Assembly (NCBI GenBank): GCA_015523565.1 | Contig: WAKA01000036.1 | Location: 1-23,332, forward strand | Reading direction: 5' to 3' | DNA length: 23,332 nucleotides | DNA from: Candidatus Heimdallarchaeota archaeon | GTDB taxonomy: Archaea > Asgardarchaeota > Heimdallarchaeia > Heimdallarchaeales > Kariarchaeaceae | Shown: positions 1,500 to 17,832 of the stretch, piece by piece | Layout: every line of letters begins with the position of its first letter | How positions within the stretch are numbered: position 1 is the stretch's first letter | Position numbers and translations under genes: made by a program | The notes under the pieces: model-generated | Told to the model about the DNA's origin: nothing | The model's input: the letters and a program-made list of their open reading frames with translations, nothing else | The model's database searches: none

Positions 1500-2009
1500 A
1501 TGAAAATCATTGTCGGTTCAACCAATCCGGTCAAGGTCAGTGCAGTACAGGAAGCAGTGGCTCTCTTTGGTTTGCCTGCAAGTGTGAGGGGGGTGAGTGT
1601 TCCTTCAGGTGTCTCTCCCATGCCCTTGTCCCGGCAGGAGGTTCGCAAGGGAGCCAAGACGCGTGCGATCAACGCCCTTTCACATGGGGCAACTCTTGCC
1701 ATAGGCATGGAGGGGGGCATAGCTCCAATTGAAGGTCAATATTATCTGACGTCCAGTGTCTATGCATGTACCGCCTCTGATGGGGCATGGGGTGGGGAAA
1801 TTCTTGTTCGACTTCCAGAGGACTTGGTTTCCTTGGTTCTTGAAAAAGGGATGGAACTTGGAGATGTGATCGACCTGCAAACAGGGCTGGAGAATTCGAA
1901 ACAGGGGGGTGGTGCTGTTTCCTATCTCACAGGCGGTCGGCTTACGCGTCAGCAGGTTTTTCGTGACTCATGTGTCCAAGCCTTGGCTCCTTTGCTTCAG
2001 TCCATTTGA
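1500..2009 (+). CDS. yjjX: Non-canonical purine NTP phosphatase (inosine/xanthosine triphosphatase, YjjX family)
   Basis: Motifs MKIIVGSTNPVKV, SGVSPMP, GAKTRA, IGMEGG, ELGDVID, KQGGGAVSYLTGG and TRQ. The start was placed at ATG 1500, where family similarity begins. Confidence 0.92.
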   Translation: MKIIVGSTNPVKVSAVQEAVALFGLPASVRGVSVPSGVSPMPLSRQEVRKGAKTRAINALSHGATLAIGMEGGIAPIEGQYYLTSSVYACTASDGAWGGEILVRLPEDLVSLVLEKGMELGDVIDLQTGLENSKQGGGAVSYLTGGRLTRQQVFRDSCVQALAPLLQSI

Positions 2010-3662
2010 GATATACTGGAAATGGTACGCGATTTGAAGTCCGCTTTCAGTTGGACGGACAGCCCTTCTGTTCATTTGTCCCAAAATGGGAATCTTTACA
2101 AGGTGGCCTTTTTCTGTAAGGTCATCTATTGCATCTCTCAATCTTCTTTCACTGTTGGGGTATATGCGAACCAATTCAACGATAGGTATGGCCTGGTCTT
2201 GGCTATGCAGGACAATGTAATGCAGGACAAAGAGCTCGTCAAAGTTCATTTTCAGGACAATGTGGATGATGTTTTGATCTGGCTTGAAGGTTTTTGGGAG
2301 AATGTCACCTTGTTGTGTCTCAGTTGTTTCTTTTCCCTTTTCCGGTTTTTCCGTGGGTTTTTCTTCCTGTATCTCAGTTGTATCATTTTCCCCTTCTGGT
2401 TTTTCCGTGGGTTTTTCTTGCTGCGTCTCAGTTGTATCATTTTCCTGTTTGTTTTCTTCTTTCAATGTGTCTGGGGTGTCCTTGGTGTCTGTCCATTCTT
2501 TTGTACTTATGGCTTCCTGTAGCGGTTCATTCGGCAGTTTGCTCTTTTGTTCTGTTTCAAGTATCTCTTGTTTGCCGGTTTCATTCTCCATGTGTTTGTG
2601 TTCAGTTTGTTGCATTATCACATCAATTATCTGCTGGATGGGTTGTCCCTTGAACAATCTCATTTCCTGTGCCAGGCTTCTTTCCTCAATCTTTGCAGAC
2701 TTCAAGTCTGCGAAGCTTAGGGAAAGTGGGACAATCCAGGTCACTGCAATGGCAATGGGGTTGGTAAGCATGTTGTTGTCCGTTTCAAGATATCGGAAGA
2801 GGATTGCAGTGAAGGTGACAATTGCCCCAAATATGGTCATTGTCTTAAGCAATTTCATTCTTTTTATGGTCTCGAATTGATTTCTCCTGTAGGATACAAT
2901 ATCCTGAATGGGTTCCTGTATGGATTGCGGTTGATGCTTGAAGTCGAGCTCATGGATGAAGATGTTGAAGAGGGCGAATATTACGGTTGGAATGGTCATG
3001 ACTAGTGTATAGTCGATCATTTGGATCTTGCCGTTGGAAAAGGAGTAAGGAAGGGTGAAAAGGACGAGCCAAACCAGGTTTGCAAGATATAACCATTCCA
3101 ATTCCTTCCATGCCTCTTTCTCTGCCGCTGTTTTTTTTTCCTTGTACCAGAAGATAGACCAGAAGACGAGAAGCAGTCCTATGGAAAAATTTTGGGAGAG
3201 TATTGATGCATAGGCAAAAAGGGCGAATATGGTCCATCCCCATGGACCGAACGAGAATAGGGATCCATAATTGTTGTCGTCCATCGGTGTTCCCATGACC
3301 AATTTTGGGTTTTGGGTAAACTTGCCCCAATCGGACAAGGCTACCAGGCCATAGAATATGGGGGTTCCAACAATGCTGATCCAGAGCAAGACTTTCCAGA
3401 TTTTGAATATTTTGTCTTTGTGTTCATTGTCCATTAGGGAGAAGAATTGTTCATTCAGGAAATCATAAGCCAATATCGTTGCATGATAGGTTGAAAGGAT
3501 GATGGCTCCATGCAGGCAAAGGAAAAGATAGCTGAACCAATCCCATCTGAAATCCGGTTCATAGATAAGGATTGCTGGAATGCCAAGGGGAATGATGGCA
3601 ATTGTTGCAATCCAGACACTGAGTGTAAGTTTTTTCCTGAGGCTTTTATCTCCCAAAAACAT
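1968..3662 (-). CDS. Membrane-tethered putative transcription regulator: ~8 TM N-terminal sensor, acidic repeat linker, C-terminal MarR-like winged HTH (564 aa)
   Basis: Hydrophobic helices span residues ~12-320, followed by an E/K/T/Q-rich disordered linker. The C-terminal 'IPIVELVRIYPNSERRLRDAIDDLTEKGHLVKIPILGQMNRRAVRPTESG' fits the wHTH pattern (L..kG.v.r......d.R.v.lT..G). Confidence 0.75.
   Translation of the reverse strand: MFLGDKSLRKKLTLSVWIATIAIIPLGIPAILIYEPDFRWDWFSYLFLCLHGAIILSTYHATILAYDFLNEQFFSLMDNEHKDKIFKIWKVLLWISIVGTPIFYGLVALSDWGKFTQNPKLVMGTPMDDNNYGSLFSFGPWGWTIFALFAYASILSQNFSIGLLLVFWSIFWYKEKKTAAEKEAWKELEWLYLANLVWLVLFTLPYSFSNGKIQMIDYTLVMTIPTVIFALFNIFIHELDFKHQPQSIQEPIQDIVSYRRNQFETIKRMKLLKTMTIFGAIVTFTAILFRYLETDNNMLTNPIAIAVTWIVPLSLSFADLKSAKIEERSLAQEMRLFKGQPIQQIIDVIMQQTEHKHMENETGKQEILETEQKSKLPNEPLQEAISTKEWTDTKDTPDTLKEENKQENDTTETQQEKPTEKPEGENDTTEIQEEKPTEKPEKGKETTETQQGDILPKTFKPDQNIIHIVLKMNFDELFVLHYIVLHSQDQAIPIVELVRIYPNSERRLRDAIDDLTEKGHLVKIPILGQMNRRAVRPTESGLQIAYHFQYISNGLKQRSQGLDT
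2311..2445 (-). repeat. Intragenic 54-bp (18-aa) tandem repeat, ~2.5 copies (ENDTTExQxEKPTEKPEG)
   Basis: Near-identical blocks at 2344-2391 and 2398-2445, with a partial third copy at ~2311-2337. The repeat is in frame. Confidence 0.9.
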
Positions 3663-3817
3663 CCATAATATTCTTGATTTTTATCCAATAAATACTTATT
3701 TTATACGGTTCAAAATCATGCACTTATATTTCTTTTCCCAAGGGTTTCCCATTTGCTGGTTTTTGCCCCTCCTTATTTATTGGCAAGGGGAATCTTTGAT
3801 TAGAGCAAAAACAGCTC

Positions 3818-3823
3818 GGAGGT
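3818..3823 (+). promoter_or_regulatory. Shine-Dalgarno GGAGGT for the small peptide ORF
   Basis: GGAGGT lies 9 nt upstream of the in-frame ATG at 3833 and abuts the ATG at 3824. Confidence 0.75.
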
Positions 3824-3994
3824 ATGAAAAAAATGAAACTCATGATGAAGAAACTGATGATCGCACTACTACCCTTTGTGATTGGAACAAGCATTGCCGC
3901 GGCAAGTGCCGCAGGAACCGTTTGTGACTTCTTTGGCGGCGGCGCATTTGGTTGCATAAGAACCGACGGTACCGCACCTGGTGGTGGCGCATAA
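3824..3994 (+). CDS. Small secreted Gly-rich, two-Cys peptide precursor (56 aa; 53 aa if it starts at 3833), missing from the ORF track
   Basis: Manual translation: MKKMKLMMKKLMIALLPFVIGTSIAAASAAGTVCDFFGGGAFGCIRTDGTAPGGGA*. It has a basic N-region, a hydrophobic core, an A-S-A signal peptidase site and a strong SD. The stop is TAA at 3992-3994. Confidence 0.85.
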   Translation: MKKMKLMMKKLMIALLPFVIGTSIAAASAAGTVCDFFGGGAFGCIRTDGTAPGGGA

Positions 3995-4011
3995 AGCAAC
4001 TCTAATTCTTG

Positions 4012-4218
4012 AAGTCCAATGTACTCAAACTCAATATTTTCAAAGTCCAATGTACTCAAACTCAATAACTTCAAGTCCAATGTACTCAAACTCAATATCT
4101 TCAAAGTCCAATGTACTCAAACTCAATAACTTCAAGTCCAATGTGCTCAGGCTCAATATCTTCAAGTCCAATGTGCTCAGGCTCAATATTTTCAAGATCC
4201 AATGTGCTCAAACTCAAA
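4012..4218. repeat. Tandem array of a 30/31-bp unit AAGTCCAATGTACTCAAACTCAATA(T/A)CTTC(A), 7 copies (last partial)
   Basis: Copies start at 4012, 4043, 4073, 4104, 4134, 4164 and 4194. There are no spacers. The 31-bp units break any reading frame. Confidence 0.95.
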
Positions 4219-6818: not shown

Positions 6819-8081
6819 GTGGCAAACAATGGAGAAGCTGATATATCCCGCATGGGATTTGTGGACACGGTGGGTCGACCGTTCTTTATAGCGAACGGCA
6901 TCCTTCTTTTTGAGGTCATTGTCCTTTCGATCCCCTATGTCGACACTTTATGGCATGATTTTAGGTGGTGGAGGATTGGTGGTATAATTCCCTATCATTT
7001 CATCGGGGCTTTCGCACTCTTCTCATTCACCGCAGTACTGCTCGTCGTGGGCATGAGACGCAAGAATTGGGTGAACAACCTATTGTTCACATTGTCTATG
7101 GGACTGGGTGGATTGGTCTTCTTTTGGTCTGGATATGTGGATTCCACCACTGGGGACACTTCCAGTCGAACCATTGATTCATGGCTTCATGATTCGGTAT
7201 GGTTCCCAATAATGGCAATGTTTGTTCTCGTCTTCTATCTTCACCTTGAATTTCAAACCAATGACTACCCTCCCTTGAAGCGGGTTATTCCAGTCATTGC
7301 TTCAACTTCCCCTGTTTTTTTTGTTGGAATTGTCTCTTTGATTTCCAGAAAAGATTTCATCCATGACCCTTCATTGGGCACTCTTGTAGCCAATCTGCTT
7401 TTCTTGGGTGGACTTCTTTTCACGTCCGTGCAAGGCACCTATTCCTATTTCCTCAGCTTGAAAAACTATGATCTTTTTGAAGGTGGTGCATCTGATGATG
7501 CAAAAATCCAATTTGCGGCGTTGGTAGGTCTAACCGAGGGAATGATTCTTTTTGCCTTGGACAATGCGCTTGACTTGCCCTTAAACATTCAATTCCCTCT
7601 TATTCTAATAACCTTCCTAATACCCTTGATGATCATTTATATCAAAAATCCCAACTATATATCAGTCTTGGCTACACCAATCCTTGAGCTTCTTGTGGTA
7701 AATGAATCTGGTGTCACGGCATATTCCTATAGCTTTATCAATAATAATGGAGGGACACAGAATCCAAGCACCGCATTTCTGAAAGGAAGTATCCTGTCCG
7801 CAATCTTTACCGTATTCAATGAGATTGCGGGAAAAGAATCGAGCTTCAACGAGGTTGACTTGGAGGGACGGGCATTCTTGGTTGAGAAAGTTTGGATAAA
7901 TGATACCACTTGGGTTGTCGGAGTCATTGCCACGGCTCCCTGTTATTATATCAAGCAGTCAATCCATATCTTTAGTGAGTTACTGAAAGAGTTGATAATC
8001 CAATATGAAGTAAACAACAAGGGTGCAATTTTAGAAATCCCTTCAGAAGTCAATAGTTTAGTGAAGGAGATTTTCACTTGA
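6819..8081 (+). CDS. Multi-pass (~8 TM) membrane protein with a C-terminal cytoplasmic longin/roadblock-like domain (420 aa; alternative start 6852)
   Basis: TM-rich N-terminal ~280 aa. The C-terminus 'LELLVVNESGVTAYSYSF...SILSAIFTVFNEIAG...NEVDLEGRAFLVE' has the beta-beta-alpha-beta-beta-beta-alpha pattern of longin-like folds. Confidence 0.65.
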   Translation: MANNGEADISRMGFVDTVGRPFFIANGILLFEVIVLSIPYVDTLWHDFRWWRIGGIIPYHFIGAFALFSFTAVLLVVGMRRKNWVNNLLFTLSMGLGGLVFFWSGYVDSTTGDTSSRTIDSWLHDSVWFPIMAMFVLVFYLHLEFQTNDYPPLKRVIPVIASTSPVFFVGIVSLISRKDFIHDPSLGTLVANLLFLGGLLFTSVQGTYSYFLSLKNYDLFEGGASDDAKIQFAALVGLTEGMILFALDNALDLPLNIQFPLILITFLIPLMIIYIKNPNYISVLATPILELLVVNESGVTAYSYSFINNNGGTQNPSTAFLKGSILSAIFTVFNEIAGKESSFNEVDLEGRAFLVEKVWINDTTWVVGVIATAPCYYIKQSIHIFSELLKELIIQYEVNNKGAILEIPSEVNSLVKEIFT

Positions 8082-14195: not shown

Positions 14196-14278
14196 GCGTG
14201 TATAATGTTTTCCGTTTATTTTTGCCTTTTGCTTCTTGAATGATTTCTAACTTTTTAAAGTCAATATATCCGAAAAGC

Positions 14279-14992
14279 ATGATGAAAAAAGGAATTGCCA
14301 TCTTGTTAATGGGGATTGTCTTTATCACCCTAATCCCACAATCATCTGCCTATAACATCAAACTGACCTACCTCGACCTAAGTGGAAATACCCATTCATT
14401 CGCTGAATTCGAGGGAAAATGGCTCTTTGTTGAAGTTTTCAGGCATGATTGCCCGCACTGCATCAATCAACACCCTGATTTGCAACAGCTTTACGACTTG
14501 AGAGTTGATGTGAACAACAGCAAAATGGAAATGCTTTCCTTGGCAGTATCTTCTGACACTGTGGAAGAAATCCAAACCTTCCTGAACGACCACCCGACCC
14601 CTTGGAATATCGGTCGGGATCCTCAAAACTCCTTTTCAAACACATATGGCATCACAGGCACTCCCACCATGATCCTTTTCGATACGAAAGGCAATGCCGC
14701 TAAATCATGGGTTGGTGAAACTCCCCTGTCAACATTACTCACTGACATTGACCCATTCCTCTCAGGGGAAAAATCAGCTACAATTACTGACCTTAAAGCA
14801 GTTGGAAACGCTCCCTCAAGCGGACAAAGCCTTATTGGATCCATTGTCGGCAATCCAATCGCCCAAGCGGGATTTCTCATCTCCTTGTTCCTTCTGGTCT
14901 ATTTCAAGCTTACATCACCATCTCCAGACGCAACGAAAAAAAGCCCAAAGAAAGAAACTAACCTGGATAGCCATCAATCAGCAAAGAAGTGA
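14279..14992 (+). CDS. TlpA/ResA-like extracytoplasmic thioredoxin-fold disulfide oxidoreductase with a C-terminal TM (237 aa)
   Basis: Signal peptide MMKKGIAILL...SSA, then DLSGNTHSFAEFEGK, CPHC and YGITGTPTMILFD, then a C-terminal hydrophobic helix. Confidence 0.9.
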   Translation: MMKKGIAILLMGIVFITLIPQSSAYNIKLTYLDLSGNTHSFAEFEGKWLFVEVFRHDCPHCINQHPDLQQLYDLRVDVNNSKMEMLSLAVSSDTVEEIQTFLNDHPTPWNIGRDPQNSFSNTYGITGTPTMILFDTKGNAAKSWVGETPLSTLLTDIDPFLSGEKSATITDLKAVGNAPSSGQSLIGSIVGNPIAQAGFLISLFLLVYFKLTSPSPDATKKSPKKETNLDSHQSAKK

Positions 14993-15462
14993 TAGGCATG
15001 AAAAACAAGACCATTCAAGCCATACTCTTTATCGCATCAATCGCAGGAATAATGGATACCCTTTTCCTGATTGACAGTTATTACAATGACCCCGCCGCCT
15101 GCTCCACCCCGTTTTTGCAATCAATTTTCGGTATCCCTGTTGATTGCGGGGAAGTTACCACCTCCCAATATTCCAAGGTGTTTTCCATCCCCCTTGCTTT
15201 CTATGGACTGGTCTTTTACCTCTCACTCTTCCTTATTCTGTATTTTGAAGACAGGCTAACCCCCCTCCTCAAAGACAAACCACTTGATTATGATTTCCTT
15301 CTTTTGGCATTTGGAATTACAGGTTTTCTTGTCTCCTCGATTCTCTTGTATATACAAGTGGGACTGATCGGCAAGGTCTGTCTTTATTGCCTTTTGTCGC
15401 TGGTCTCAAGCTATACCGTCTTAGGAACAACCTTTGTGAACCTCAAATTGTCAAAAAAATGA
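14989..15462 (+). CDS. Vitamin K epoxide reductase (VKOR) family disulfide-bond formation protein (154-157 aa)
   Basis: Loop cysteines AAC...VDCGEVTTSQYSKVFSIPLAFYG and the active-site CLYC. It is coupled to the upstream thioredoxin gene. Confidence 0.92.
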   Translation: MIGMKNKTIQAILFIASIAGIMDTLFLIDSYYNDPAACSTPFLQSIFGIPVDCGEVTTSQYSKVFSIPLAFYGLVFYLSLFLILYFEDRLTPLLKDKPLDYDFLLLAFGITGFLVSSILLYIQVGLIGKVCLYCLLSLVSSYTVLGTTFVNLKLSKK

Positions 15463-15540: not shown

Positions 15541-16686
15541 TTGGCTACGTATCTTGAAATTTTCCTTGCTATGCTCAATGGCATTATTGTCCTCTCATAT
15601 ATCGGATTCAATATCCATCAGGTAATCTTACGCAAGGATTGGATCTCCATTGAAATCCTTTTCACCTCCACCCTCTACTTTTTTTCCATCATTGTAAACT
15701 TCTTATTGTTTGACCTTTTCTTTCTCCAGCCTCAGACCGCTCAGATTGTGTCCATGTTAGGGGACATTTCTGGCGCTCTTACGCTGGTATTTCTGCTCTT
15801 CTTTTTTGATAGACGCACCTATTCACATAGAATTGGCTATTCCGCTAAACTTGCCTATATGTTCCTTACCATTTGCATCTCCTTTCTTATAATGGCAGTT
15901 GCAACCAAGGATTTTTTCATCGTAGGTTCCCTTGTCCAAGAAAATAGGATTGTTCTTCATCGTCATCTCCTATTCAGGATATTTCTAGGAGCAGGTGCCG
16001 CTTTTTTCATTTATTCATTCACCTCCATGCTTGATTTCATTCATTTGGGAAAACCAAGTTGGTTTGTCATTGAACCTAAAAGGCAAATGTACCTGCTTTT
16101 CATTGCCTTGATCATTTCCCAAGGGCTCTTCTCCTTGATTGGGGGATCTCAAGAGTTCTTCCTCATTGCCGAAATCATCAATTCCATTGTCTATATTCTT
16201 GTGGCATCTCAAATCCTGCTCATCCCCAATTTCATTTACCTGAAACAACAGAATATACGTATCCTTTTCAACCAAGGCGAATTCGGATGGGGCATATATA
16301 GGCTAATCAATAACTTGCCAACAAAACAAGTGTTTTCACAGCAATTCCTTGACAACAATGGAATGGATCCAACTTTCGAGATTGGTCTTGTTTCTGCCAC
16401 AATGACTGGATTCCTTTGCATGAATGATTCATGTGGATCCATGATGCTGTTCTCAATTCCTAAATATTCCCAGATTATTGCAATCACAACATCATTCTTC
16501 CTCACTTCTGATAAGGAATGGAATGAATATCTCCTACAATTCTATATTCCTTATTCATACCTTGGCACCATCACCAAACTCGTTGATTTGCATCACATTG
16601 TTTACAAATGGCTAAACACCATCAAAGACATTGAAGATGACACCCTGTCAGAAAAACTAATGAAAATTATCATTAAATTTTGGTGA
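15541..16686 (+). CDS. 7-TM membrane protein with a C-terminal cytoplasmic domain (paralog 1, 381 aa)
   Basis: About 7 hydrophobic helices in the first ~230 aa. The soluble C-domain begins 'LFNQGEFGWGIYRL' and aligns by eye with the next gene. Confidence 0.7.
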   Translation: MATYLEIFLAMLNGIIVLSYIGFNIHQVILRKDWISIEILFTSTLYFFSIIVNFLLFDLFFLQPQTAQIVSMLGDISGALTLVFLLFFFDRRTYSHRIGYSAKLAYMFLTICISFLIMAVATKDFFIVGSLVQENRIVLHRHLLFRIFLGAGAAFFIYSFTSMLDFIHLGKPSWFVIEPKRQMYLLFIALIISQGLFSLIGGSQEFFLIAEIINSIVYILVASQILLIPNFIYLKQQNIRILFNQGEFGWGIYRLINNLPTKQVFSQQFLDNNGMDPTFEIGLVSATMTGFLCMNDSCGSMMLFSIPKYSQIIAITTSFFLTSDKEWNEYLLQFYIPYSYLGTITKLVDLHHIVYKWLNTIKDIEDDTLSEKLMKIIIKFW

Positions 16687-16692
16687 CCTATC

Positions 16693-17832
16693 ATGCATGA
16701 TCTTCAATATCAAATTTTGGTTGCAGTTGCTTTTCTTCTGTCAATAATTATCAACGGCATATTTTTATGCATCACGTTCTCTTCCTTAAAAAAACGCCTT
16801 GTCCTCCTGCTGTTGGGAAGCTTTCTGACTACCATCTCAATCATAATCCTTGCCTTTTACTCAATGCAATCCTCCCCTGTGGAAAATGTTCGATTGATCT
16901 CTTTTGCAGGGGAATTGGTCGTTATTGCCCTCTTGATCCTTATTTTCCATCTTCCCGATTATTCTTCCTTTCAACGGATTTTGGAAAGGATTGCCCTCCT
17001 CAGCTCATCGGTGCCACTTGCATTTTTGATGATTGGATCGTTCTATCCTGAACATATTGCATACTCTCCCTTATATTTGCCTGAAATGGTATTTTTTACT
17101 TTTATCCCAGTCCTTGTATCATTCCTTGTCATCATCCTTGCTTTTGTCAAATTGGTCTTATCCAATAAAAGTATCATAAAATCTCTCTCTCTCCCTGAAC
17201 ACGGACGTATCTTTGCAATAATCACTTTTATCATCTTCATTATGTCTTTCTTTGTTTTTTTCGACAACATTGACAATCATGATAAAATCAGCATTCTTGT
17301 CCTTTTCTACTCAGTTCTTACCAATATTTCATTTGTCTTGGCTGTTTTATATTACCCTCAACGTTTTCCATCTCGACGAATTCTAAACAATCTCATGAAA
17401 AACGGGGCAATTGGCTGGCTTATGTCCATTATGGACGATGATGGGCCTCGTTCCTTGGCTTGGTCGGAATCTTTCGTGGCATGCAATTCCATTGACCAAA
17501 CCGTCTTGGATCAAGTGACAGTCCATGTTATTTCCCTTATTGGGCTTGGAAAAGAGGATGAGAAATATGACAACCTTTCCAATTTTGTACTTACCCTGTC
17601 CCTCAAGGAACCAATGCTGATTTTGGTGTTTCCCTCAAATGCCTCCGCAGAATTTGAGGATGAACGTTTCCAAGGCAGTACTGTCGCAACACTGTCTATC
17701 TTTTTGCCTGCAAGACTTGCCTCTTCCTTGAACATTCACGCCATTGAACTTCCCCACTTCAAAATTGAAAGTATTGGGCATGCCGATATTGAACAAACTG
17801 TAATCGATATCCTGTCTGAAATCTATGCATAA
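16693..17832 (+). CDS. 7-TM membrane protein with a C-terminal longin/uDENN-like domain (paralog 2, 379 aa)
   Basis: About 7 TM, then 'LMKNGAIGWLMSIMDDDGPRSLAWS...DERFQGSTVATLSIFLP'. The beta-strand-D..GP-beta-strand start is typical of uDENN/longin-like folds. Confidence 0.65.
   Translation: MHDLQYQILVAVAFLLSIIINGIFLCITFSSLKKRLVLLLLGSFLTTISIIILAFYSMQSSPVENVRLISFAGELVVIALLILIFHLPDYSSFQRILERIALLSSSVPLAFLMIGSFYPEHIAYSPLYLPEMVFFTFIPVLVSFLVIILAFVKLVLSNKSIIKSLSLPEHGRIFAIITFIIFIMSFFVFFDNIDNHDKISILVLFYSVLTNISFVLAVLYYPQRFPSRRILNNLMKNGAIGWLMSIMDDDGPRSLAWSESFVACNSIDQTVLDQVTVHVISLIGLGKEDEKYDNLSNFVLTLSLKEPMLILVFPSNASAEFEDERFQGSTVATLSIFLPARLASSLNIHAIELPHFKIESIGHADIEQTVIDILSEIYA

Follow-up and report, generated by a model that had tools for sequence, protein, structure and literature searches.

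A probable 7TMIC-like transmembrane transcription regulator and a family of predicted secreted two-cysteine peptides in Heimdallarchaeia: neighbouring but probably separately travelling genes

The stretch of DNA analysed here (the window) is one entire contig of 23,332 nucleotides, WAKA01000036.1, from a deep-sea Heimdallarchaeia archaeon; this class is the closest to eukaryotes among archaea, and the genome of 3.57 Mb is 90% complete. Two divergent genes are the subject of this study, a 564-amino-acid (aa) open reading frame (ORF) at 1968-3662 on the reverse strand and a small ORF at 3824-3994 on the forward strand, and their described arrangement, with 161 bp between them, was confirmed. The evidence supports the large gene as encoding a membrane-tethered one-component regulator with a MarR-like winged helix-turn-helix (wHTH) domain in an Asgard archaeon. 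The favoured explanation, held with some reserve, is that the two are real but separately travelling signalling genes, namely a 7TMIC-like one-component regulator and a lineage-specific micro-peptide signal. Two things are new: the product of the large gene, a probable one-component regulator of 7TMIC-wHTH type, and the Asgard family of predicted secreted two-Cys peptides, which is apparently undescribed.

The regulator (1968-3662, reverse strand, as are all its parts) is composed of a 7TMIC-like domain of seven transmembrane (TM) helices, an extra helix TM8, an acidic linker and a C-terminal wHTH. Residues 1-293 (2784-3662) hold the seven helices, with the N-terminus inside, a long conserved extracellular loop 2 and a short loop 3. 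TM8 (about residues 302-320; 2703-2759) brings the chain back to the cytoplasm, and a MarR/TubR-like wHTH occupies about residues 462-552 (2007-2279). The earlier proposal of about eight TM helices and a C-terminal MarR-like wHTH was borne out by hydropathy, AlphaFold models, the wHTH fold and a positive-inside bias, which was found in all seven aligned members (10-23 Lys plus Arg inside, 2-5 outside). TM8 and the cytoplasmic wHTH are present in all full-length members, so that a TM region and a DNA-binding domain lie in one polypeptide, as is the criterion for transmembrane transcription regulators. One receptor homologue matched HTH_34 (E 5e-5), and the basic residues of the recognition helix and wing are conserved; from the modelled fold, the domain is expected to bind DNA. 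The acidic repeat linker of the original prediction is likewise present, as a low-confidence region at about residues 345-460 (2283-2630) with a 54-bp repeat in 2.4 copies at 2314-2445, but it is unique to the window protein and absent from all homologues. Pfam gave no family for the 564-aa protein, a viral structure search returned only wHTH matches, and ESM Atlas searches by features and by shape returned nothing usable. Among 400 genomes of the phylum, the receptor family was restricted to one Heimdallarchaeia family.

The function of 7TMIC proteins is known almost only from insects. The superfamily comprises insect Gr/Or, DUF3537, PHTF and the Bac/Arch7TMICs, including Heimdallarchaeota members (Himmel, Moi, Benton, bioRxiv 10.1101/2023.08.30.555482). 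Judging from the models, homology of the regulator's TM domain to this superfamily is fairly likely. Insect Gr/Or entries were the top structural matches of residues 1-293 and filled the whole top of both match lists, with 230-256 residues in order. The TM7 motif T283-F-hhhh-F-R290-Y291 (2790-2816; T[FL]hhhhx[RK]Y in the family) falls in the same register as TYhhhhhQF, the signature that Grs carry in pore helix S7b. The intracellular N-terminus, seven TMs and extracellular end of TM7 that define a 7TMIC were all found in residues 1-293, according to the positive-inside counts and the model, and the loop pattern and two helix-specific motifs also agree. A long TM4/TM5/TM6 anchor domain is a further 7TMIC mark; the TM4-TM5 cytosolic loop is short here, and a short loop at this place has been reported for most prokaryotic 7TMICs.

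The regulator also departs from known 7TMICs. It adds an eighth TM and the cytoplasmic MarR-like wHTH after TM7, the gating Gln is replaced by Arg/Lys in its family, and no sequence-level similarity was found with insect and plant profiles or PDB sequences. In 7TMICs, TM7 is split into a cytosolic 7a and a membrane 7b; TM7 of the regulator falls into a polar part (252-270) and a hydrophobic part (272-290), yet it is unsplit, a single helix, in a model built from seven sequences. Literature searches turned up one paper on prokaryotic 7TMICs. The published screen retained only prokaryotic structural matches with exactly seven TMs, and its text does not contain the words 'winged', 'DNA-binding' or 'fusion' (bioRxiv 10.1101/2023.08.30.555482); exactly seven TMs with an extracellular C-terminus do not occur in the regulator family. 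A PDB sequence search with the TM profile found nothing, and the 7tm_7 and DUF3537 profiles had no match at the receptor loci; these comparisons covered insect and plant profiles and PDB sequences only, not prokaryotic 7TMIC sequences. The TM domain might instead be an unrelated eight-helix bundle in an ordinary multi-pass regulator, matched to Gr/Or through a common helical arrangement, but this is rather unlikely in view of the ordered Gr/Or matches and the agreement in loops, N-in topology and motifs.

Transmembrane transcription regulators are common in archaea (PMC10269533). The window regulator resembles the ToxR/CadC type in joining a TM region and an HTH DNA-binding domain on one polypeptide (PMC10269533), but differs in its eight TMs, its probable chemoreceptor fold and its C-terminal MarR-like wHTH. 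The proposed mechanism starts with a ligand outside the cell, which would bind in the pocket of TM1-6 and, by analogy with Gr/Or, is most likely a small molecule. The shift of TM5-TM7 by which insect channels are gated would then pass via TM8 and re-orient the wHTH domains of an oligomer, changing DNA binding. Since Arg/Lys occupies the gate position, channel activity may be absent or changed. Fusion of a 7TMIC-like domain to a transcription-factor domain would make the fold a prokaryotic sensor with a built-in DNA-binding read-out for ligand screens.

The small gene encodes the precursor of a predicted secreted two-Cys peptide, with the leader KKL-x-IAL-x-P. Its start had been placed at 3824, where the ATG abuts the GGAGGT ribosome-binding site (3818-3823) in the divergent intergenic region (3663-3832). 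The ATG at 3833 lies 9 nt from this site, paralogues have their start at the position that corresponds to 3833, the first ATG is lost through a natural G3826A change, and a gene call made independently in another assembly gives 53 aa from 3833; therefore, translation probably starts at 3833 (3833-3994, +), with 3824 as the alternative. By eye and hydropathy, the leader is basic-hydrophobic and ends in an A-S-A cleavage site, which would release a 27-aa mature peptide (3911-3991, +) with Cys codons at 3923-3925 and 3953-3955 (C-x9-C). A variant core in a second sample has 15 substitutions with the reading frame, the stop and both Cys kept; seven codons are synonymous (including one Cys and three Gly), and six replacements are mostly conservative. 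Because of this variant, the independent gene call and a family of 20 members, the small ORF is, by its sequence, a real and conserved peptide gene, and the predicted small secreted two-Cys peptide thus stands with a later start. Export and disulfide formation are predicted. A class III pilin-type leader was ruled out by eye, there being no G/A/S after the basic stretch. Extra copies seen in sequencing runs are absent from the assembled genome, and neither the leader nor the variant flank turned up when JGI metagenomes were scanned by DNA pattern.

The 20 family members were found by iterated profile searches in seven genomes of one family; no convincing member was found outside it in 83 genomes of the class and 400 of the phylum, most of them incomplete. 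Five are in the host genome, with a clean gap to the background (E 7e-10 versus 0.2). The leader is common to the members, and the cores are not alignable. Exactly two Cys are present in the mature region of 18/20 members, 7-15 residues apart and in nine cases 8 apart; two Cys were also found in 11 of the 12 members that emerged after the first profile. A start codon is missing from one member. In most, the core is 11-40 aa long and of acidic or neutral character, and some members have a lipobox-like V/A-S-G/S-C before the first Cys. The only Cys-free member (L015:2158-2304, G000 C227) lies 76 bp upstream of a gene for a methyl-accepting chemotaxis protein (MCP). Two orthologous peptides from two species (L029:1462-1611 and L023:1465-1614) lie upstream of a HEAT-repeat gene and have almost the same C-x10-C core, which shows purifying selection on a core.

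The neighbours of the other 19 peptides are TPR genes (7), MCP, HEAT, peptidase, helicase and housekeeping genes, so that TPR genes are the commonest neighbour, at 7/20 family loci. With 46 repeat matches to TPR_12 against a total of about 2,700 genes, a TPR neighbour would be expected at no more than 3-4% of sites; the observed figure was 5/17 independent loci (p 2e-5 to 9e-3 by baseline). The TPR-adjacent peptides are found in G000 (C221:19567-21662, L059), G002 (C158, C53 and C117; L061, L062 and L064), G006 (C167, L086) and G011 (C213 and C292; L072 and L082). In G011, the peptide and TPR pair is duplicated as a unit, the TPR proteins being 52% identical. RRNPP systems (Rap-Phr, NprR, PlcR, AimR) are recognized by a Sec-exported propeptide of 10-100 aa and an adjacent TPR receptor of 250-500 aa (PMC10075063), and small Sec-type propeptide genes beside TPR genes are what these seven loci share with them. 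The window peptide itself may have the propeptide features (53 aa; basic-hydrophobic-AxA leader, by eye and hydropathy), but its neighbour is not a TPR gene. Unlike RRNPP systems, the family resides in archaea, its cores are two-Cys loops and not short linear peptides, and its TPR partners belong to several families and are often over 500 aa. The peptide and TPR loci are therefore best called candidates for an archaeal RRNPP-like system.

The family is pictured as micro-peptides exported by Sec, in which the leader is conserved and the disulfide loop, usually C-x8-C, is hypervariable. Most likely each peptide, once exported and cut (after A-S-A in the window peptide), forms a disulfide-closed ring and serves as a signal, and at several loci the adjacent TPR protein is the likely reader, as in RRNPP; oligopeptide-binding proteins in the genome could serve import. 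How a disulfide ring would be read in the cytoplasm is a problem for this picture, and effector or lipopeptide roles are also possible. A conserved leader, hypervariable Cys-loop cores and scattered copies, several in each genome, also suit effector families. The peptides might accordingly be secreted antimicrobial or competition agents (microhalocin- or bacteriocin-like) or short lipid-anchored surface peptides, with the receptor unrelated; several copies per genome and the lipobox-like motifs favour this. It is nonetheless improbable, as most cores are short and acidic or neutral, no immunity, transporter or modification genes recur near family peptides, TPR enrichment is not predicted, and the window peptide has no lipobox. 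As signals, short two-Cys peptides with conserved leaders near TPR genes would be a synthesisable candidate for Asgard cell-cell signalling.

The original prediction had made the secreted peptide the dedicated ligand of the adjacent TM sensor, and this was not supported. Seven full-length receptor homologues in four assemblies, representing three independent contexts, were examined, and none has a family peptide within 1.5 kb (0/7); most have no room upstream for a peptide gene. Such a lack of peptide genes beside homologous receptors is one of the outcomes that the original prediction had named as refuting it. Two short ORFs near homologues, of 31 and 38 aa, proved on inspection to lie outside the peptide family. 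Conversely, 0/19 other peptides adjoin this receptor family; the lasting linkage and co-variation expected of an Agr/ComCD-type cassette are thus lacking, with one of 20 peptides beside a receptor of this kind. In addition, the promoter-proximal and leader block (3735-3888, +) was joined in two samples to other upstream DNA and a second core as well; therefore, the peptide module is not tied to the receptor promoter. Peptide and receptor are thus probably separately travelling genes, and the receptor for the window peptide is probably not its neighbour.

A recent or strain-level pherotype module, in which the disulfide peptide binds the adjacent sensor and the wHTH autoregulates the divergent promoter, is accordingly quite unlikely. 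It draws on the divergent layout, found with the same join in a second assembly, on the absence of both genes from the syntenic site of a same-genus genome, on the probable chemoreceptor fold, on the receptor-like genes (TPR, one MCP) beside other family peptides, on the second core in the population and on the fact that all four genomes with a receptor gene have peptides (p 0.08). Besides the missing linkage and the mobile block, it is opposed by the intergenic region, which has no strong palindrome and no similarity or motif shared with the downstream array, and by the solved 7TMICs in the match lists, which bind small molecules. No upstream motif shared among receptor homologues was seen by eye. 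Complex prediction of TM domain and peptide gave no answer (score 0.00) and counts neither way. A receptor-peptide link in trans is possible. The locus resembles Agr, ComCD and Fsr in its small exported peptide, possible ring and membrane sensor next door, but it has no histidine kinase, response regulator, AgrB-like maturase or double-glycine leader, and linkage is not conserved. A peptide-hormone-like system, in which one disulfide-loop peptide is the ligand of a Gr/Or-fold receptor wired to a DNA-binding domain, is very improbable; if true, it would give the fold its first peptide ligand and first non-channel output, and Asgard archaea their first peptide signalling system, none having been found described in the literature.

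The two genes occupy a variable spot downstream of a ligB-like gene, and the peptide gene is flanked by the TM-wHTH gene and the LigB-like gene. Synteny of the flanking genes extends to the same-genus genome, where the slot beside the ligB-like gene (L107:5076-7267) holds a RIO-domain gene and two tandem 7-TM proteins that have no match in Pfam. Chimeric assembly at the leader was considered and judged unlikely, since the second assembly has the same join and long k-mers should be able to phase it from variant sites close by; that assembly may derive from the same reads. A sequencing-run search found window DNA in hydrothermal-vent metagenomes from one study; no RNA run was among them, which says nothing on expression.

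The array after the peptide gene had also been noted correctly: it is a non-coding tandem array at 3998-4217 of 30/31-bp units in 7.2 copies. A CRISPR array was ruled out, as the units run head-to-tail without unique spacers. No second copy of its sequence exists in the genome, about eight intergenic arrays of the same size class do (two in the window contig), and none adjoins the four remaining peptide genes. Nothing was found to connect the array with the wHTH. Repeats are abundant in Heimdallarchaeum genomes (PMC8813620), and the array is treated as incidental and ordinary. The window also has a second intergenic tandem array (475-685; 8.6 copies of a 25-bp unit) and, at 40-300, a low-complexity stretch rich in TGTAT, with length variation between assemblies. 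An Rfam search gave chance matches only.

Strain differences in the receptor (1985, 2563, 2636, 3116 and 3326) were all non-synonymous (5/5), one being a stop at residue 560, against 3/9 in the NTPase gene; the numbers are small and some depths low. One run had a depth of 23.5 on the receptor side and 34.8 on the ligB side. A search for a shorter diverged receptor allele returned only P0007. In two genomes, two receptor paralogues face outwards around a conserved three-gene block (L001:5088-9338 and L016:2132-6425) of a CARF-like gene, a small TM protein and DUF7475; a setting in nucleotide signalling or defence is possible in view of the CARF-like gene. Beyond a tRNA-like gene at these loci lies a conserved 38-aa hydrophobic micro-ORF (L001:4691-4807 and L016:7167-7280), outside the two-Cys family. 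Elsewhere in the window, three multi-TM proteins with cytoplasmic C-terminal domains (15541-17832 and 6819-8081) are possibly receptor-like, the one at 6819 having no family in Pfam. A thioredoxin-like (redoxin) gene overlaps a VKOR gene at 14240-15462, likely an extracellular disulfide-formation pair.
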